In this document: piece after piece, positions 2,197 to 53,666 of the stretch
How the letters are laid out: every line of letters begins with the position of its first letter
How positions within the stretch are numbered: the first letter of the stretch is position 1
Assembly: GCA_976226885.1 (NCBI GenBank)
Contig: OZ320319.1
Coordinates: 27,094,001 to 27,158,000 of the forward strand
Direction of reading: 5' to 3'
DNA: 64,000 nucleotides
From: Iphione sp. A-MEVVRFRX5
Lineage: Eukaryota
Program-made: the position numbers and the translations under genes
Notes under the pieces: generated by a model
The model's database searches: none
What the model was told of the DNA's origin: nothing
The model's input: only the letters and a program-made list of their open reading frames with translations

Positions 2197-2200
2197 ATAT
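2197..2200. repeat. 4-bp target-site duplication ATAT (partner at 9843-9846)
   Basis: cagcATAT|TGTAGG at the left junction and AATTACA|ATATtg at the right junction. Confidence 0.9.
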
Positions 2201-2250
2201 TGTAGGGTATGGGAGGCGGTGCTGCTAAGCCTCCCATACAGGGTTGAGAT

Positions 2251-2878
2251 CGTTGGCAGTGCCACCAACCTTTTAGTATGGGAGTGTGCCTCCTGGGCCA
2301 CAGGATTGGTGGTGCCGCCAAGGTTTATGCACTGTGCTGTACTTGATGAACTCTGGGTGTGCTATTTATAGCCTGTAAGTAGGGCATGAGTGCTATTTAT
2401 AGCTGGTAGGCAGGGATCGCTGGCGGTGACGCCAACCTTTTAGTATAGGAGTGTGCCTCCTGGGCCACAGGGTTGGCGGTGTCGCCAAGGTTTATGCACT
2501 GTGCTGTACTTGATGAACTCTGGGTGTGCTATTTATAGCCTGTAAGTAGGGCATGAGTGCTATTTATAGCTGGTAGGCAGGGATCGCTGGCGGTGACGCC
2601 AACCTTTTAGTATAGGAGTGTGCCTCCTGGGCCACAGGGTTGGCGGTGTCGCCAAGGTTTATGCACTGTGCTGTACTTGATGAACTCTGGGTGTGCTATT
2701 TATAGCCTGTAAGTAGGGCATGAGTGCTATTTATAGCTGGTAGGCAGGGATCGCTGGCGGTGACGCCAACCTTTTAGTATAGGAGTGCGCCTCCTGGGCC
2801 ACAGGGTTGGCGGTGTCGCCAAGGTTTATGCACTGTGCTGTACTTGATGAACTCTGGGTGTGCTATTTATAGCCTGTA
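2251..2878 (+). repeat. 167-bp tandem array in U3 of the 5' LTR (about 3.8 units)
   Basis: CCAACCTTTTAGTAT recurs at 2265, 2432, 2599 and 2766 (period 167). Confidence 0.95.
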
Positions 2879-2959
2879 TGTAGGTCACATGTAGCAAAGG
2901 GGTTCCAAAAAAAATTACTGTGTTGCATGTTGGAGATGATCATGTGACTGACTGCTGCC

Positions 2960-2990
2960 TATATATAAGGGGCCCTGTGTGGCCAATAAA
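2960..2990 (+). promoter_or_regulatory. LTR TATA box (TATATATAA 2960-2968) and poly(A) signal (AATAAA 2985-2990); copies in the 3' LTR at +6600
   Basis: Canonical motifs directly downstream of the U3 tandem array in both LTRs. Confidence 0.7.
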
Positions 2991-3243
2991 CCAGTCTGCA
3001 CTTGGATTACGTTGTGGCTGTTGTCTCTTCAGGGAATGCTAGGAACACATACCCACTTGGATTTACCTTAGGGTTAGCCTATTGGAGTAGCGTATTGGAT
3101 TAACACATGAGGATTACTCAGCCAGGGAATTAACTACCATAGGAGGATTTACCAAGTGGAAATAACAACACACATACGACACTTGGGGATATTACTTTAT
3201 TCCAAGGAGTAACTCAAAGGAGATATAAATACGCAAATTACAC

Positions 3244-3261
3244 TGGTGTCAGAAGTGGGAT
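3244..3261 (+). promoter_or_regulatory. Primer-binding site complementary to tRNA-Leu 3' end
   Basis: TGGTGTCAGAAGTGGGAT begins 1 nt after the LTR. It is the reverse complement of ...ATCCCACTTCTGACACCA, the 3' end of metazoan tRNA-Leu(CAA) as I recall it. Confidence 0.9.
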
Positions 3262-3273
3262 TCCCCAGACAAG

Positions 3274-4125
3274 ATGGCTACAGCTTATGTCTCTGTGGAC
3301 GATGAAGTGCAGATTCGTGTCACCAGCCCGGCACCTGACACAGAAGAGGAGGAGCACTTTGAGATTGCTCCAGAAGAGCCGCTCAAGATCAACACTTTGA
3401 AGCCAGAGCGGTTTGACGGTAAGACTGTTGATTGGGACAGCTGGATCAGTCAGTTTGCGGAGTGGGCAACCGCTTGCAAGTGGGGGGAGGACACAAAATG
3501 CTCTGCATTGACCTTGTCCCTGACAGGGACAGCCCGCATGTATTATGGGGATCTCCCTGCCGAGGAAAAGAGGGATTATGCTAGCAGGGTGGCTGCCCTT
3601 GAGCGAAGATTTGGCAGAAGGAGGGATCGAGTTGTGGCAATGCAGAAACTATCAGGCATGAGACGTCAGAAAGACGAGGATGTGAGGGACTTGGCCGATC
3701 GGGTTAGGAGGCTGGTACGCACAGCATACCCCGACGTGACGGGGGAAACTAGGGAATTGGCAGCTGTTGCGGCATTCCAGAGGGCCCTAGCAGACTCCCT
3801 CCACTTGAAGTGCCTTGAAGCCAAGTGTACAACATTGGATAACGCTGTCCAGGTAGTGGAGACCCAGGAACGTTTTCGGGCAAAGGCAATTAACACCGTA
3901 CAGCAGGCTCCTATCCAGACCCCTATCGCCTCAACCCCAGCTGGGTGGAAAAAGGAGATGGAGGAACTCATAGCTCAGGAATTGCGCAACCTGAGAGAGG
4001 AAGCTAAGACACAAGAAGAAGGAAAGCCTCAGAGGCCCCGGTTCACTGGATGCTACCAGTGTGGACAACATGGCCACTTTAAGCGGGATTGTCCCCAACT
4101 ACCTACATCAGGAAACGCCAACTAG
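3274..4125 (+). CDS. gag: Retrotransposon Gag (283 aa), capsid-like region plus CCHC zinc knuckle
   Basis: ATG 12 nt after the PBS. Gypsy-type motif PERFDGKTVDWDSWISQF...W...K...L...LTGTA. CYQCGQHGHFKRDC at 4051-4092. Confidence 0.93.
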   Translation: MATAYVSVDDEVQIRVTSPAPDTEEEEHFEIAPEEPLKINTLKPERFDGKTVDWDSWISQFAEWATACKWGEDTKCSALTLSLTGTARMYYGDLPAEEKRDYASRVAALERRFGRRRDRVVAMQKLSGMRRQKDEDVRDLADRVRRLVRTAYPDVTGETRELAAVAAFQRALADSLHLKCLEAKCTTLDNAVQVVETQERFRAKAINTVQQAPIQTPIASTPAGWKKEMEELIAQELRNLREEAKTQEEGKPQRPRFTGCYQCGQHGHFKRDCPQLPTSGNAN

Positions 4126-4212
4126 CTGGCCCAGTAGGCCCGGGGGAGCATGGCTGATCCAGTCCCCCCGGGGTGCATAAGGGAGCAAGGCTGGGGGCCA
4201 TGCTTAGGTAAG

Positions 4213-5069
4213 CATAAGGGGTGGCAACTATATACTTCTGGTGGATACGGGGGTAGGAGTTTCCATTGTTTACCCTGGGGTAGTTCTTGGCCTTGAAGGT
4301 AAAAGGGGACAGACCTGGATTAATGGGGCGGGTGGACAGGTAATCCCCATGCTAGAAACAGAGGTCCTAGGGATAGAAAGTAGTAGAGAGACAGTTTTTC
4401 TCACCCTTTCCTGATAGCTCAGACTGGAGAAGAGGGTATCTTGGGGAATGATTTCTTAAATCATCATCAGGCAGTCATAGACCTGGCACAAGGGAGGGTT
4501 CGCTTTGATGGTGAGTCAGGGGCGCAGCAGCGTCCTGGGAAAGTAACCGCTCTACGTGGAGCCCATGACGTGTCCCTTTCCATGGGAGTGGGGCGGGGGC
4601 CACTGTCTTACTGACCAATCCTGAGGGTGCCTTGCCTCTAATAGAGGGGTTGGATGAGAAGTGGATGAAACAAGGGATCTTTGGGCTGTTAGCTCAGACA
4701 GTGGGGCAGCCTGACGTGGTACAATCCGAGATTTATTTGCTGGGCCCCCATCCCATTAAGCAGCCCCCATAGAGGGCCCTAACCGCCCCTGGGGTGGGAG
4801 TAACAGGGGCTAGTGGGGGAAATAAGGGTCTTGGGGGTGACCCAGGAGAGTGGGAGGTAGTCAGGCGGCTCGATGATGAGCGTTTGATGATACAGCGGAC
4901 GCAAAAGGCGAAGCTGAAGGTGGTTCATAGGAACCGGCTACGACGTTGCCAGGGAGACGATCTTCCTCGGTGGATTTTGACACTAAGGAAGAAGATGGTG
5001 GCGTCGCGGGAGAACGGAGAGGTCAAAACGAAGACTTCGGGCGTGGGGGGAACGGATCCCCCGGAGTAG
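4213..5069 (+). pseudogene. pol: Decayed, internally deleted pol: aspartic protease relic, first residues of RT, integrase C-terminal tail
   Basis: LLVDTGVGVSIV (DTG at 4244-4252), with stops at 4412-4417. GILGNDFL (4435-4458) lies in another frame. HPIKQPP*RAL (4749-4781) resembles the start of RT. KGL...WEVVRRLDD..MIQ....K.KVVHRNRLRRCQG...P.W resembles the GPY/F tail of Gypsy integrases. No YxDD, RNase H or DDE core is visible. Confidence 0.85.
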
Positions 5070-6094
5070 CCGGAGTCAGGAAGAATTGGGGGTATAAGCA
5101 CCCAGGTGGCACTCAAAAAGTTCATGGAAGGTGGTGGAACACCTGGAGCGTGTAGCGTTCAAAAGTTCCAGTAGGACATGACGGACGTCCTGAGGATCAT
5201 CAGTATCCAAAACGAGTCCGTGTTGGGGTAGACTCCCTGTAAGCATCCAAAAAGTTCTGGGAGGCAAAAACGAGGAGAGCCTGGAGCTGCCAGAAGCTTA
5301 GAATGCTCCTCGGAAGGAGAGAGTAGACATCCTGGGGGCCATGTGGGCCCTGAAAAGGTCTAGGAGGAGGGCGGACATCCTGGGACGCTTAAAAAGGTCT
5401 GGAGTGGGAGGATGAACATCCCAGAGTGCACAAAAGAGCTTATGGAATGCACAGGGCTATTGGAGAGGGCCCGGAGTTAGACGCGGAAAGCTCAAAACGA
5501 TCTCCAGAGGGGTCGATAGGTAGGCCCCTGAGAGGAGCAACCGAGAGGGCGACTAGGACGCGAACAGGCTGTTCCATGAAAAGTTTGATCCCCCCTTACC
5601 ACCAAGGGGTGGGAGAGAAACAAGACTTCACACCGTCGCCGCACGGAACGCTATTCAAACTGCTGGTCATCCCCGCTGGGGGAACACTTGGGCCAGGATG
5701 TAACCCATGGCTTCTGAAAGACAAGAGGCCCATCGGGGGCGTGGTGAGGAAGAGTAGCACTACACATGGATGACAACCCCAGGAGGGGGAGGGGTAGCTA
5801 TTGGCTGGCTGAATGACTGACTGAACCAAGCTGCCGTCCATTTCCTCTAGGAGAAGGCGAAGACCAAGATGCTGTCCATTTCCTCTGGGGGACGCCAGCT
5901 GCTCGGCTGCCAGAACAAGGTAGACAACAGTGAGATCCTCAGGGAGGAAGAGGCCATGCTGGGTTAGTGAGGTGAGGTAGGGAGGAAGAGCCATGATGGG
6001 TTCGACCTGTCTTCACCAACGGCGAGTCAACGACTGACGGCGGGCCACGCCCCCCCACTGACTTATATAGCATCACGACTGGGGAGGAAATGCG

Positions 6095-6935
6095 TGGCGG
6101 ACCCGCCGACGAACAAAAATTAAAGCGCAATGCCTGTCCCGACCCAGGAGAATGTTGGCGACCCCGCCACCGAAGAAATTCTACGACGCAATAAAAAGAA
6201 GGGGTGGCGACCCCGCCATCGAGGTAATTACGTCAGGAGTGGCGGCTCCGCCACTGACATTGAAGGGGAACGACACGTCGTGGGGATCGTCCACGACAGA
6301 GGTGTGGCGGCCCCGCCAACGATCCTTGCCAAAGAAACTAAGACGAACTGAGTGGCGACCCCGCCACTAAGAGAGGTTGCAAGGCAACTACGTCGCAAAA
6401 ATAACATTCAATTACCAGAGCGTTCATCGTGTTGAGCTTGGCGGAACCGCCAACAACAATGGTCAGACTGGTGGCGCCGCCACCGTTGGATACCGGAAGC
6501 GGGCAACCAAACCATCCGGTTTGCCTCGTTTTCAGATAGCGTGAATTGTGAACATGTGTAAGACCCGGAATGTCGGCCCCAAAGTGAGAGAAAATATAGT
6601 TTTTGGAACGAAATAACCAGGAAACACTAGGAGAGGGAGACAAGGAGGAACCAGGGATTCGCAGAGTGACGGTTGAGCCCGGGAATAGCGAAAACACTTC
6701 GCCAGCGCACGCCAAGACCCGATCGATAGCGGCACCGCCAGCATTGTACACTCTCTGGTAAGAAACCGATTTTGATAAGGGTAGTCGATCTTCCCCTAAA
6801 CTGGTAGCGGAACCACTAGCACCCCTAACACAGCAAGTATTACCCCTTGGGATTGGCGGCACCGCCGGCATCAGTCAAGAGGGGGCCCGCTACGTAGTAC
6901 GCATACCCGGGGAGGCATTGTTGGTGGTACCGCCG
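6095..6935. repeat. Cluster of about 12 spaced palindromes T(G/A)G(C/T)G-N4-C(G/A)C(C/T)(A/G) with unique spacers
   Basis: Copies start at 6095, 6156, 6205, 6240, 6305, 6353, 6439, 6469, 6727, 6805, 6854 and 6922. Confidence 0.85.
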
Positions 6936-6964
6936 ACATAGTGGATAGCAGCCCTGCCACAGAA

Positions 6965-8389
6965 ATGCCGAGGGAGCCGGTCGACCAACCAGAACGCCTG
7001 CCCCGAGTGGCAAAGGAAGGAAGGCCAGCTGGTACTGAACTCTGTGAACTGTGTACTGTGCCCCGCCCTTTCTTTCCGGGCGCGTCTATGAAGCGCCACA
7101 TAGATGACTACCACAAGGGCAAGAGGAGGAGGCATATGAGGTGTCTCTTCTGCCCCAGCATCCTGTCCCATGAGCAATCATGGATCGGACACATCAGGAA
7201 ATATCACGCATGGGTGGTGGAGATGGGGCTCACCGACAAGCCTTACCGTCGGCTCTTTGATGCTACGCCGACGGGGGAGGTGGTGGCCCCTGATGACGAG
7301 CTTACGGAAATAGTTATGGCGGCCCGGAAGAAGCGCCAAGCTGGGTGGGCATTGAGCAGGGAGGAAGCAGAGCACATGCTTGCCAACAGTACTCACCGTA
7401 CACCCCCACCTGTACCGATGCGGCGATGTGTGGAGGCACTGGCCCCGGTGGCTGCCGCCCTCCCGGGTGGGGGCCAACTGGACCGCCCCCAACTACCTGT
7501 CGTGGACCCAGCTGTTCTTCACGACATGCAGCACCAATGTGAGCCCCAACCTGGTCCATCTGGAGTGGGAGGGGACCCCCTCCTCAGCCAAGCAGCTGCA
7601 ACGCCAGGGGGTGGCCGGTCCCCAGGCGCATTGGTGCCAGTGACAGGGGCCCTCTCACCCGCCCGGAACCTTTTGTCTCCTTGGAGATCAGAAGATGACT
7701 TAGCCACAGGCGCCATGGAGGTGGGGCCACCAGAGAAGAGTACGGGACTGACTTGGTTGCCTGACGGACATCTGGCCCGTCTGGCCTGCCACCTCCTGAC
7801 TTCTGCCCAGGTTGAGCCTGCCCTGGGCCACCTACGGAACATTTTGGATGGGGTTGTTCACCCACATGTTCCAGTGATGCGGGAGGTTCCCCAACCGATG
7901 AAGATACGGCTTCCGCCTTGTCTCACATGGCCACCACAGTCCTGGAGGAAGATGTCCCCTTCCCAGCGTCTCATGGCTTGTACCGCCCTTGCCTGGGTGG
8001 TGCAGATGGCCGAAGGAGGAGAAAATGACAAGGCACTCCTGGGCCCCCTGCTCACACCTCTGCGTCGCCGTCCGGTTTTGCTGCTTCCGGGACTGGACAT
8101 CCCCAGCGAGAAGGAGTGGGGAAACCCAGACAACCTCCTCCGGTCCAATAATAAGGTGCTGGAAATGGCAGAGGGGTTCCTTAAGGAGCAACGAGGGCGT
8201 TCGCCCCCATTAAACTCCCGGTGGGCGGAGGAGACTCAGGCTATTCGGGATGAGTACCAGGCTCAACATCTGACCTTGGCAGACCTGTGCAACAACGCTG
8301 CACCCTCACAGTACCTCTTCCATCTAGACGACATATGGGGGGATGAGCTGGAGGAAGAGGGGCCAGATGAACAGGAGGCCGCGGAGTAA
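6965..8389 (+). CDS. Accessory ORF of the LTR element (474 aa from first ATG): two N-terminal C2H2 zinc fingers and an unknown C-terminal domain
   Basis: Long uninterrupted ORF; the track starts it at GTG 6941, the first ATG is 6965. Motifs CELC-x14-HIDDYH and CLFC-x12-HIRKYH, a Pro/Gly-rich linker and an acidic tail. No signal peptide or TM segment visible. Confidence 0.85.
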   Translation: MPREPVDQPERLPRVAKEGRPAGTELCELCTVPRPFFPGASMKRHIDDYHKGKRRRHMRCLFCPSILSHEQSWIGHIRKYHAWVVEMGLTDKPYRRLFDATPTGEVVAPDDELTEIVMAARKKRQAGWALSREEAEHMLANSTHRTPPPVPMRRCVEALAPVAAALPGGGQLDRPQLPVVDPAVLHDMQHQCEPQPGPSGVGGDPLLSQAAATPGGGRSPGALVPVTGALSPARNLLSPWRSEDDLATGAMEVGPPEKSTGLTWLPDGHLARLACHLLTSAQVEPALGHLRNILDGVVHPHVPVMREVPQPMKIRLPPCLTWPPQSWRKMSPSQRLMACTALAWVVQMAEGGENDKALLGPLLTPLRRRPVLLLPGLDIPSEKEWGNPDNLLRSNNKVLEMAEGFLKEQRGRSPPLNSRWAEETQAIRDEYQAQHLTLADLCNNAAPSQYLFHLDDIWGDELEEEGPDEQEAAE

Positions 8390-8954
8390 AGTCATTGAAC
8401 TACACTGTTGCTGAGGACAGTTGCAATATTAGGAACATTATACTGCTGAAGATGTTATGCGAGATTCTAGACCAAGGGACCAATTACATGTGTGAGGTAA
8501 GGAAGGCTCCTGATGTTGGAGCAGAGCCGGAAAGCACAAGCGTGTAGATTCAGGAAATTGCATTCACTGCTATTCGTTGTAATTAAAGAAAACACAAAGG
8601 GGGCCATACCCCACAAAAAGAGTTACTTAAGATTGTGCATGGATGTTCCAGGAAGAAGAGATAAGTAAGGGGGATCCTACCCCCACAAAAAGAAAAAGTT
8701 TTGTTTGGTGGTTGCCATATGTACCCCATATTGGGGCGAGCCGGGGACGTTACTCAAAAAAAAGGGGGAGACCCTCCCTCCAAAAAGAGAAGTAGAGGAG
8801 TGTTTTTTTTTGTTTAGGGACTGTTGTACTGTTGTTACCTGAAAGAAGATATTTACCCCAGAGAGCAAGCCTGACTGCCAGCTAGAAGTGGTAAGTAGCT
8901 ACCTTACTCAAATATTACTCGCTTCCAAAGTTCCCCCCCTGGACATGTGGATTT

Positions 8955-8967
8955 AAAGGGGGGAGAG
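8955..8967 (+). promoter_or_regulatory. Polypurine tract
   Basis: AAAGGGGGGAGAG directly abuts the TG of the 3' LTR. Confidence 0.92.
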
Positions 8968-9842
8968 TGTAGGGTATGGGAGGCGGTGCTGCTAAGCCTC
9001 CCATACAGGGTTGAGATCGTTGGCGGTGCCACCAACCTTTTAGTATGGGAGTGTGCCTCCTGGGCCACAGGATTGGTGGTGCCGCCAAGGTTTATGCACT
9101 GTGCTGTACTTGATGAACTCTGGGTGTGCTATTTACAGCCTGTAAGTAGGGCATGAGTGCTATTTATAGCTGGTAGGCAGGGATCGCTGGCGGTGACGCC
9201 AACCTTTTAGTATAGGAGTGTGCCTCCTGGGCCACAGGGTTGGCGGTGTCGCCAAGGTTTATGCACTGTGCTGTACTTGATGAACTCTGGGTGTGCTATT
9301 TATAGCCTGTAAGTAGGGCATGAGTGCTATTTATAGCTGGTAGGCAGGGATCGCTGGCGGTGACGCCAACCTTTTAGTATAGGAGTGCGCCTCCTGGGCC
9401 ACAGGGTTGGCGGTGTCGCCAAGGTTTATGCACTGTGCTGTACTTGATGAACTCTGGGTGTGCTATTTATAGCCTGTATGTAGGTCACATGTAGCAAAGG
9501 GGTTCCAAAAAAAATTACTGTGTTGCATGTTGGAGATGATCATGTGACTGACTGCTGCCTATATATAAGGGGCCCTGTGTGGCCAATAAACCAGTCTGCA
9601 CTTGGATTACGTTGTGGCTGTTGTCTCTTCAGGGAATGCTAGGAACACATACCCACTTGGATTTACCTTAGGGTTAGCCTATTGGAGTAGCGTATTGGAT
9701 TAACACATGAGGATTACTCAGCCAGGGAATTAACTACCATAGGAGGATTTACCAAGTGGAAATAACAACACACATACGACACTTGGGGATATTACTTTAT
9801 TCCAAGGAGTAACTCAAAGGAGATATAAATACGCAAATTACA
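8968..9842 (+). repeat. 3' LTR (875 bp), with about 2.8 units of the 167-bp repeat (9018-9478)
   Basis: Repeat anchor at 9032, 9199 and 9366. 9121-9842 matches 2521-3242 apart from one base. Confidence 0.96.
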
Positions 9843-9863
9843 ATATTGATATATTTTGCCTAA

Positions 9864-12355: not shown

Positions 12356-12870
12356 CAGAGGAACCTCGCTTACCGGAGCCCCAACAATCAGATTTTCACA
12401 TTAACTGCAACAAATTTAAATTACCAAGTGTTTTTTCTGTATAAAATGTACTATTTAACTGGATATTTGTTTTTCATAACCGGAGTGTATTTAACTACAT
12501 TCTTATATGCTTTACTATAGGAAAAAGACATACTAACCGGAATAGGAGCAAGATGATTACATAAGAGTGACAAGCAGACCAGACCCTCCTAAAAGAAGAG
12601 ACAACATAGCTCAGGGCGACTAGCATAGGTTCAAAGTCAAATACAGATGTGCGAGATGATTGCATAAGAGCAACAAGCAGGCCAGACCCTCCTAAAGCAA
12701 GACACAACATAGCACAGAGAACAAAGAAATGATACATTCTCCCTGAAATTTGCTGTTTTTTGTCACTTTCTCCTTGAAATTTACTGTTTTTTGGCACTTT
12801 CTCCATGGAATTTGCCTCAATCTCCATGAATTGGGCCATTTTTCCCTGCCAGGAGATGCATGAGTCGCTT
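12356..12870. mobile_element. Tc1/mariner(pogo)-like non-autonomous repeat; related copy at about 26565-27000; right end uncertain
   Basis: TA|CAGAGGAACCTCGCTTACCGGAG vs CAGTTGAACCTCGCCTACCGGAG. Both copies share a downstream block (ccagaccctcctaaaagaagagacaacatagc vs ccaggacctcctaaaagtagaaacaacacagc). Confidence 0.5.
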
Positions 12871-46800: not shown

Positions 46801-48067
46801 ATGTATGATAGATGTTTTTATACTTTTTGCAGTGAAATTCTATGATAGGTGTATGACAGATGTATGAAAAATGATATTTTCATACTTTTTCCAGTGACAT
46901 TCCCCAGTTTTATATACTTTTTCCAGTAAAATTCACCAGTTTTCATTCTTTTTCCAGTGATATTAACCAGTTTTTGTACGTTTACCAGGAGCATTGACTA
47001 GCTATAAGTAATAACACAGCCAAAATGCATTTTCAGTTGACACACGAATCCATGAGCCTGAGTTAAGGTAAAACGTATGTAAAATGTGTGGTAACGCACA
47101 TGGACCGCAAACGCAAGTGAACAGACCTCAGCGCATGTAAGGAATCCGGCCCTTATACATTTAGGGAAACGTTAATTAATGTATTTTGTATACAAGACTC
47201 CATCGCTTAGCAAGATAAATCTAAACATACATGTAATACGAAAATAAGTGTACAACTGTTCTCAGAAAACATAAAGATCATAACGAAAACTTAACCATTT
47301 CGATAGTATCCACCTCAAGAACCCCCCAGAAAATAACCCGAAAAGTCAAAGTTCCTGACACTTCATGTATGGAGAACCAAACAGGTGGTTGCTGTTTAAA
47401 ATTTGAGAGCGCAGATGACAATCCAAACATTTTCGATCAGGCCCGCTTCTGCGGATTTTTATTACCGAGTCACCGTTATACATGCACTTAAATCATTAGA
47501 TCCATAATTGATTGCACTTTAAGTGGTGGTACCAGTCTACGCAAACACAAGACCCTGGGGTCAATTTTTAGTCGCAGACCATGGCCAAACCAGATACATG
47601 TACCTCCCCAGCGCAAACGTCCCAGACATATAGGTTCATACAACTATAATCTCTCGGGTAATGTATTAATATGTGGATGTTATACTACACCAAAAGGCTT
47701 ACCGAACACTGGCAAACACACGCATGTCTGGGAAAATACCAATACAATACGAGAACGATTCATCAAAACCTTTTGGAAGACAAAACAAATTTTTCGTGGG
47801 TCTTTTATTAACGTCTTGCACAAGTGATTTATTGCTATTGTTCAGTCAAAGTTAGAGTCTAATTATTTATGCATATATAGACACTCTTATATGATTAGCA
47901 TAATACATATAGATGGGACAATATGGGTTGGATGTTTATCAAATTCTATAATTTGTATAGGGATGTATACAAAAATCCCGGGTGAATACGTTTTATCTGC
48001 AGAATTCTTACCCGAAAATTAACTCTAGCGTATGATTCAGAATATTTTGGAACTCAAACTAAATTTA

Positions 48068-52060: not shown

Positions 52061-53666
52061 TATAAACCATTTCTTTCCCGCGCTTGTAAACACAACGTCC
52101 TTCACCAAGTGCGATCCGAGGTGGCTTTGATCCCTTTAGGGCGGCCATCCTTGATAGGATCATCTCTTGATCCCGCCAAAACGGGGTGACCTCAAAGTAA
52201 GTGCACTTAAGAGGATTTCTGTTGGGACAGTTACAGTTGCCATAGTGATGTGTGGAGGAGGATCCCCCTTGACCCCCTACCCCCTGGAGGTATATAGGCC
52301 CAGCAGGAGGGGGGTAAAATACCGTAGAATGTACAAGGTACATGTACAACCGCCTGGCGGTAGGCTGGCGTTGCCGGCCCAGGTGGTCCCTCTCCTCCCG
52401 GAGGCCCCGTCGGGCTCTCGTGGGTGCAAACACCCGCTCCGACATATATACAAGTACATATATATATATCCATGTATATATTCCCTGGAATATACGTAGG
52501 TTCACAAGCACTGGAAACACATAGGAGGGAAAGGATTCAACTACAGAGAGGTTATCAAATACATATACATGTATTCAAAAGAGCGACAGCATTTTCTCGC
52601 TTTGATCTCAATTGTTATGGTGAAATTTATGCTGATCCAAGAATTTTGACTCGTTTAAGTTTGCTTGCTACAGTGGTTCTTCGATGTTCGTCAAAGAACG
52701 TAGTTATTGCACAAAACGGAGAACTTCTCCGCTTAAATAGACTATTGAAACCCTCATAGAGTAAGTAATCTCACCAATCATTATATGGCTCTATGTGTCA
52801 CGTAAACTAGAGCTAATATACGTGTACATTGTATATGCAAACTAACGTTTAACCAAGACATAAATTTATAGGTACTTTTTGTCTAAAAGTAAATGTGTGG
52901 ACCGCCTTTTTTGATCCAAAGGAGTGAATTGTAATCGAGCAAATACAATGTGCGATAACCTGATCTAACTGGGATGTCAAATAGCTCACCTTATGATATC
53001 GTTACTCTAATACTATACAGACGAAAAAGCCAAATGCGCCGAGAGGTCTTCGTTATAAGCAGTGGTTTGATATCTTATATCCCACAGGGATATCGAAATG
53101 GGAGGAGGCTCTGCTGGTAAATCACACTGCATCAACAAATAGCTCTGCCAACGAATGCTAGCCTTTCCACGAAATGTAGATATTACAGATCAAATGAACA
53201 TACAATGTATTTTCATTCTGTGTGCAGCATTTGGAGACCGAACAAATAATTAAACGAAGAGTGGAAGGAGCAGAAAAGGTGAAAAAGGTATTATTCATAC
53301 AAGTATATGAAGGAAGGAAAAGAGGAGACAGACAGACAGGGACACGGAGAGAAGGATGGGGCACAAGGGAACAGAGAAATGAATGAAGTGTATCAGCGGT
53401 TCATTTTGGCGAGATTTTTAGAACAGATTTTTTCCTGTATTTCTTAGGAGGGTTCACACTGCGTCTCATTGCCCTTTGACATGCGAAAATGTCCCATCAA
53501 AATCACCATGTAAAAGAATTGATCGAACTCTAGGTTTTACTTGTCAATTTTTCATCATTAGAATTAATCCAAAAACGAAATGAATATCTCCCCCTCCCCT
53601 TAGACACTAGTAAATGTGCTGCTTTGTATTGTGTTGTAGGATTAGGTAATAAGGAAACAGTCTTAC

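Follow-up and report, generated by a model that had tools for sequence, protein, structure and literature searches.

Arrayed dyads shared by the LTRs and a zinc-finger gene of a Ty3/Gypsy retrotransposon in Iphione sp.: a candidate self-regulatory module

The element and its internal module

The window, i.e., the whole stretch of 64,000 nucleotides of Iphione sp. A-MEVVRFRX5 that was analyzed, contains at 2201-9842 a young LTR retrotransposon of the Ty3/Gypsy type from which most of pol is gone. A first-pass annotation had noticed a palindromic motif, here called the dyad, both in the LTRs and upstream of the zinc-finger ORF of this element and had read it as a possible self-regulatory circuit. 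The element is composed as follows:

2197-2200 (plus strand): target-site duplication of 4 bp, ATAT, found in the flanking sequence; second copy at 9843-9846
2201-3242 (plus strand): 5' LTR with TG...CA ends, its U3 made of 3.8 copies of a 167-bp unit, from LTR comparison
2254-2821 (no strand assigned): eight dyad sites in the 5' U3 from a pattern scan, a pair in each unit
2960-2990 (plus strand): LTR TATA box at 2960 and AATAAA at 2985
3244-3261 (plus strand): primer-binding site, identical in sequence in other copies
3274-4125 (plus strand): intact gag with a CCHC knuckle (PF00098, E 4e-6)
4126-5924 (plus strand): decayed pol remnant, the start of the protease fused to the integrase tail
5924-5928 (minus strand): deletion point from comparison with copy L064, about 1.3 kb gone including the antisense accessory ORF of pol-bearing copies
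6030-6069 (minus strand): predicted antisense core promoter, TATA at 6069-6062 and initiator-like TCAGT near 6035
6095-6482 (no strand assigned): left array of eight dyad sites with unrelated spacers
6493-6529 (no strand assigned): conserved central core with two inverted boxes, which we take to be ETS-like
6727-6935 (no strand assigned): right array with four clear dyad sites, the ATG following 29 nt after the last of them
6965-8389 (plus strand): accessory gene of 474 aa with two C2H2 fingers, Cys27-His81
8955-8967 (plus strand): polypurine tract
8968-9842 (plus strand): 3' LTR of 2.8 units with six dyad sites (9021-9421)

The two LTRs differ at 2 of 875 aligned bases, the 5' LTR being longer by one 167-bp unit, and each LTR has an additional degenerate dyad site at its start (2214, 8981). 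In the 5' U3 seven CTAWWWWTAG boxes, presumably MEF2-like, alternate with the dyad sites, and the primer-binding site is assumed to be the complement of the 3' end of tRNA-Leu. LTRs with TG...CA ends, a target-site duplication, a primer-binding site and a polypurine tract are all present, as is typical for Ty3/Gypsy elements, and gag and the Ty3/Gypsy order protease-RT-RNase H-integrase were found in the related copies L064 and L078. The window copy is devoid of RT, RNase H and most of integrase, and positions 3707 to 5035 of L064 have no counterpart in it. The named relatives of pol are 57-64% identical and mostly from animals, some of them labelled 412-like or K02A2.6-like. The host genome of 1.18 Gb contains hundreds of relatives of the element, with at least 150 matches in each of the protein searches. 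A donor-like box, GGTAAG[T/G], is located at window position 8880-8900 and at the corresponding place in several families; 9 of 26 family representatives have one no more than 200 nt from the polypurine tract, and no clear intron accompanies it.

Where pol is present, the internal array is flanked by two accessory genes in divergent orientation, with the two-finger C2H2 gene on one side and a conserved gene in antisense on the other, an arrangement that goes beyond the first-pass annotation; neither gene had a known homologue in the searches run. The antisense ORF (for example L064:3931-4764, minus strand, and 31 other loci; about 190-280 codons) was found in 32 of the 37 loci examined and is lost from the window copy. 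Upstream of it lie a likely splice acceptor and a long poly-T tract, and it encodes a protein with conserved ends and a middle part rich in Ser, Pro and Asp that received no name from Pfam or solved-structure searches. A minus-strand TATA with an initiator-like pattern is present in 24/26 family representatives, and the antisense transcript, as predicted, would head towards pol. The pattern of the central core has 259 matches in the genome and none for the control, it occurs in all 26 representatives, and it is likely to be the TATA-less promoter of the zinc-finger gene. Downstream of this core 2-7 dyad sites are found, and in every one of the 26 representatives a site lies 2-81 nt (median 14) before the ATG of the finger gene, while 23 of the 26 finger ORFs contain no site.

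The 474-aa protein consists of the two fingers, a helical extension to about residue 150, a variable linker, a conserved orphan domain at about 258-460, and an acidic tail. The tail is acidic and Trp-containing in many families and absent in several classes. All eight zinc ligands are invariant in 38 aligned rows. Finger 2 fits Cys-x2-Cys-x12-His-x3-5-His exactly and is modeled with a beta-beta-alpha fold, finger 1 departs from this pattern by a Cys-His interval of at least 14 residues instead of 12 and by a Pro at -1, and the finger domain contains basic stretches. An AlphaFold2 model of the N-terminal part reached a pLDDT of 82.5. The finger profile weakly matches the Miz-1 fingers (E 0.005), and an equally weak vimentin match covers the helical part; in the Atlas the N-terminal part fell to unnamed clusters and minor C2H2 families. 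For the C-terminal domain no usable Atlas match was obtained, and the Pfam and solved-structure searches left it without a name. The finger ORF is under purifying selection: pN was below pS in 15 of 15 pairs, and dN/dS was 0.05-0.14 in ten pairs, 0.37 in one and saturated in four. Outside the host genome a full HMMER scan of 1.84 billion representatives returned no finger protein at E 0.001, and none was found by word-index searches, which covered near lengths only, or in metagenome and viral contigs; these libraries contain few eukaryotic transposon proteins, so that absence elsewhere is not implied.

The dyad and its classes across families

The motif is best described as a 6-2-6 dyad, TGGYGG-NN-CCRCCA. 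The first-pass annotation had described it as TGGYG-N4-CRCCA and had seen 6-bp arms with a 2-nt centre in several copies; the 6-2-6 form fits the motif better overall. Exact matches to TGGYG-N4-CRCCA number 20 in the window against 0.29 expected, a count reached by none of 100 shuffles, and every one is within the element, 13 in the LTRs and seven in 6156-6482. With one mismatch allowed there are 30 matches, three of which lie outside the element compared with 5.67 expected window-wide, in agreement with the remark that the motif had not been noticed elsewhere. All 14 LTR positions named earlier are real, 13 as exact matches and 2254 with one mismatch, and the roughly twelve internal copies claimed for 6095-6935 were counted as twelve clear sites, at 6095, 6156, 6205, 6240, 6305, 6353, 6439 and 6469 (overlapping a second at 6472) on the left and at 6727, 6805, 6854 and 6922 on the right, with a degenerate site at 6946. 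The array had been said to end 30 nt before the ATG, which is off by one nucleotide for the last clear site. It had also been argued that internal centres ending in C indicate the opposite orientation; this does not hold because that C is base 6 of the right half-site and says little on orientation.

The genome-wide scan that had been proposed as a check places the motif above background, the perfect dyad occurring 283 times compared with 19 times for the reversed control. On contig C1, 28 of the 35 listed places with a perfect dyad adjoin element matches in a by-eye comparison. Ten unassigned places on contigs C1 and C2 were followed up; five are LTR copies and five matched nothing. Single perfect dyads away from element matches (L146, L149, L150, L145, L152) are about as many as the reversed control predicts. 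In view of the counts in the window and genome-wide a chance origin of the motif was rejected. NFI, whose site spacing we take to be one base shorter than that of the element dyad, was set aside as the binder on spacing, and a known RNA family was rejected as there was no Rfam match.

Of the 85 stretches that entered the comparison across families, 77 contain an intact finger pair, and from 71 a U3 could be recovered; they form 26 families at 85% identity. For each family all 4096 half-sites were searched in the internal region alone, with the U3 left unused; the motif of L143 is an exception that was set by hand after viewing. The internal-array matrices reached a mean of 0.88 of the maximum on the U3 of their own class compared with 0.35 +/- 0.06 when permuted, so that the motif is seen to change jointly in LTR and internal array. 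None of 20,000 permutations of the 26 families equaled the match, a figure that is not a clean probability due to kinship among the families. Seven motif blocks were obtained, i.e., TGGCGG, YCGTGG, TTGYGA, TTGGGK, CTGYGG, TCGTGT and a spacerless GGGCCC, an eighth class came from a new lineage in the blind test described below, and all eight, which the first-pass annotation had not described, coexist in one genome. The TCGTGT class matches its own U3 more poorly (0.60-0.74). A shorter dyad on GGGCCC that has no spacer is found in L143, L144 and L172, implying a dimer geometry that would differ from that of the other classes. Base 4 of the half-site, a CpG position, is often C and often T in every TGGCGG and YCGTGG family, which may reflect CpG decay or methylation tolerance.

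Left array, right array, U3 and the helix class of finger 2 are concordant in 69 of 71 elements by a helix-class rule that was fitted on these same data, and both misses are near ties. After removal of the sites, the internal spacers aligned with the U3 no better than shuffles in 7/7 families, and the idea that the internal array descends from a decayed LTR or was copied from a tandem repeat was rejected because the spacers share nothing with the LTR; the internal sites are therefore not duplicated LTR copies. The right arrays of five TGGCGG families align with one another at background level or close to it in nine of ten pairs, and each of them has nevertheless kept 3-5 sites. As the first-pass annotation had suggested, half-sites are kept while spacers diverge: in 18 overlapping pairs the arms are conserved to 77%, the centres to 61% and the spacers to 63%, although in the two closest pairs the arms were kept no better than the spacers. 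Part of the agreement between array, gene and U3 is explained by shared descent since the three are physically linked.

In the integrase grouping, for which 26 of 33 rows had an integrase, L143 and L144 group with the TGGCGG backbone, while their finger gene is distant and their motif different. Within a backbone (e.g., L064, L068, L070, L071) the integrases are about 99% identical and the finger genes are saturated at silent sites. From this contrast it appears that old finger alleles of one specificity were kept and shuffled onto one pol, for which escape from small-RNA silencing may be one reason. Ten copies of three classes have LTR stretches that are 99-100% identical, and several classes have therefore moved recently in one host.

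Finger residues, bases and a blind test

According to the part of the source available, a C2H2 finger contacts its triplet in antiparallel orientation, the 5' base through helix position +6, the middle base through +3 and the 3' base through -1; the residues for G are Arg, Lys and His, those for C are Asp and Glu, and T is recognized by Glu (PMC12264921). In the register assumed for the comparison, bases 0-2 belong to finger 2 and bases 3-5 to finger 1. His at position -1 of finger 2 goes with G at base 2 in 153 of 166 half-sites. With Asp or Glu at this position the choice between C and T depends on +2: Asp/Glu with Gln goes with C at base 2 (275/316) and Asp/Glu with Tyr with T (183/210). 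The invariant Arg at +6 of finger 1 corresponds to the invariant G3 (771/794). Contrary to the C2H2 code, Arg, Asn or His at +6 of finger 2 goes with C at the flank, and, given the longer Cys-His interval and the Pro at -1 of finger 1, no canonical reader exists for the invariant G5.

When 153 columns were ranked for base 2, +2 took the top place and -1 the fifth, and for base 1 the top place went to +3; as predictors of base 2 the non-helix columns Pro33, Thr31 and His57 are about equal to the helix residues. On a tree built without the helix columns the four residue-base rules have 1, 2, 3 and 1 independent contrasts, none of them opposed, which are too few for the rules to reach significance.

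The rules were fixed beforehand and then applied to 20 further loci. Two of these had no intact finger pair, five belonged to known families and behaved as expected, and 13 formed a new lineage with 63% identity or less to the known families. All 13 internal regions of this lineage carry a 6-2-6 dyad array with T1, G3 and G5, and, with up to three mismatches allowed, three or more such sites were found in each of the 12 recovered U3s. As Asp predicts, base 2 is a pyrimidine; of the three subfamilies, one contradicted the predicted choice between C and T and two agreed with it weakly (55-65%). A rule linking +1 to base 6 was rejected after it failed in all three subfamilies. Thus, the layout is predictive, and the fine residue-base code is so only partly. 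The co-variation of the motif with finger residues, which the first-pass annotation had proposed as a check, fits at finger-2 -1 and finger-1 +6 and does not fit at finger-2 +6, and the finer rules partly failed the blind test.

A candidate feedback switch, its alternatives and known systems

The dyads are likely bound as DNA by the protein of the element itself, judging from the comparison across families, and, if they are, the net effect is likely to be activation or anti-silencing rather than repression. As a whole, the reading in which the dyads are binding sites for a lineage-specific feedback switch that activates the promoters of the element has somewhat better than an even chance of being right. 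One protein copy would sit on each half-site in antiparallel orientation, with finger 2 on bases 1-2 and finger 1 on bases 3-5, and two copies would cover one dyad. Host factors at the central core would give a low level of zinc-finger message, and the finger protein would then raise the output of its own promoter as well as that of the divergent antisense gene and of the LTR. Activation is suggested because sites lie upstream of both TATA boxes and because many families have an acidic, Trp-containing tail; the sites directly before the ATG may damp the finger gene at high protein level. Copies without pol such as that in the window, in which gag, arrays and finger gene are intact, would both obey and supply the switch. 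The comparative evidence supports the self-regulatory interpretation of the first-pass annotation as a prediction from sequence, and the host-factor and RNA-hairpin alternatives that it had named are weakened.

A protein that binds the same dyads could also repress, turning the LTR off, limiting its own synthesis and conferring immunity within a class in the style of a temperate-phage repressor acting on divergent promoters. The evidence for binding applies equally to such a repressor, the sites between core and ATG with one close to the ATG in 26/26 representatives are placed as it would require, and the module is swapped between pol backbones; most U3 sites, however, are far upstream of the TATA box and multiplied by tandem repeats, which is enhancer-like, the acidic tail is present in many families, and the analogues described are activators in the portions of the sources consulted (PMC517496, PMC5735166). 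Repression is the main rival and is considered unlikely. It is improbable that host transcription factors bind the dyads, a different one per lineage, and that the finger gene has another role. Host-type boxes do occur in the same regions (CTAWWWWTAG in U3 and the presumed ETS-like core), and physical linkage could yield an association of residues and bases, but about eight factors sharing the 6-2-6 geometry with fixed G3 and G5 would be needed, and the perfect dyad is rare outside the family, as the comparison with the reversed control indicates.

RNA hairpins or duplexes acting in packaging, dimerisation or translational control at the ATG, perhaps as protein-bound RNA, are a very improbable basis for the dyads. 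The region 6090-6965 folds better than shuffles (z -3.2), as would any palindrome-rich stretch, G-U outnumbers A-C at two outer arm positions (20 to 6 and 13 to 5), and a site lies close to the start codon. Against this, 223 sites contain 208 one-sided and 11 compensatory changes, arm position 4 shows 29 A-C and 32 other mismatches compared with 24 G-U, and pairing in the flanks is not above shuffled (92 vs. 85, 93 vs. 90 and 50 vs. 61); moreover, the U3 sites of the 5' LTR are upstream of the TATA box, and the classes are specific in sequence beyond pairing alone. Highly improbable is a role of the bound protein on the cDNA in nuclear entry, integration or protection of the new copy, in place of transcription: the sites are dense at both cDNA ends and the finger domain has basic stretches, but sites are most densely arrayed inside the element, between promoter-like sequences, and 23/26 finger ORFs are free of sites.

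Beyond the single element, it is an evenly balanced possibility that the radiation of these LTR retrotransposons possesses a family of dimeric two-finger factors with at least eight orthogonal specificities, in which every factor travels between pol backbones as part of a module that also comprises the operators, the divergent promoter and the antisense partner. To our knowledge, LTR retrotransposons are generally thought to borrow host transcription factors. DNA-binding activators made by the element itself are known from complex retroviruses and plant DNA transposons. In lambdoid phages the immunity regions combine a DNA-binding gene, palindromic operators and divergent promoters with modular exchange and several specificities; this is an analogy alone, as the proteins are unrelated and act by repression there, while the direction of control here is only predicted.

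The foamy-virus protein Tas/Bel1 binds response elements in the internal and the LTR promoter and activates both, according to the accessible parts of the reports (PMC517496, PMC4929722, PMC13220597). As in foamy viruses, the accessory gene lies between pol and the 3' LTR and one response element is common to the LTR and the internal promoter, here as read from sequence. In contrast, the element described here is a Ty3/Gypsy element with no env-like Pfam match and no Tas homologue, it combines C2H2 fingers with arrayed palindromes and eight specificity classes in one genome, and its internal promoter is apparently divergent and shared with the antisense gene. VANC of the VANDAL elements in Arabidopsis is an anti-silencing system with family-specific motifs dense in non-coding regions, as far as the consulted part of the source describes it (PMC5735166). 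It likewise involves a family-specific protein encoded by the element and a short arrayed motif that is rare elsewhere, and between families the transposition enzyme changes more slowly than protein and target do. In contrast to the class I element in the window, which has no VANC-domain Pfam match and combines palindromes and unrelated spacers with a putative residue-base finger code, VANDAL is described in the same part as a DNA transposon with DUF1985/DUF287 and a non-palindromic 9-mer in tandem repeats of the same orientation. By analogy, the best reading is that the system in the window would work like Tas and evolve like VANC while being a member of neither.

The Spm TnpA proteins were described as transposon-encoded, sequence-specific activators on dense motif clusters of cognate families; in the sections available they belong to DNA transposons and are helix-turn-helix proteins derived from transposase, and the word 'retrotransposon' is absent from the main text (bioRxiv 10.64898/2026.08.24.746577). 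The plant elements Grande, RIRE2 and Retand possess extra conserved ORFs in sense or antisense, some with their own promoter, for which a regulatory role was proposed, with the roles of the extra ORFs of plant LTR retrotransposons called undetermined (PMC7264820). In bdelloids the ORF3 types are env-like, esterase or exonuclease in the excerpt consulted (PMC5408684). These ORFs share with the finger gene the conserved position between pol and the 3' LTR; in contrast to it, none is tied to a cognate binding site in the parts available (PMC7264820, PMC5408684), and no sequence match between them and the accessory genes was found. A literature search in which subscription papers and repeat-database entries were thinly covered found no LTR retrotransposon with a cognate DNA-binding regulator, and the accessible parts of two further papers contained nothing on one (PMC13524379, PMC12477816).

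If the proposed switch is real, a retrotransposon contains a genetic switch of the kind known from temperate phages and foamy viruses, retrovirus-like regulatory complexity arose without env in a Gypsy family, and the extra ORFs of retrotransposons have a first concrete target. It would also provide a natural series in which to follow a zinc finger changing in step with some twenty sites, and with eight natural pairs of protein and site the claim is open to a direct test. Solo LTRs with dyad sites could bring nearby host genes under the control of the element.

Elsewhere in the window, a tRNA-Arg(CCT) gene unrelated to the element is predicted at 52355-52445, and two short 31-bp tandem arrays that are alike in make-up are located at 12737-12815 and 46877-46988.
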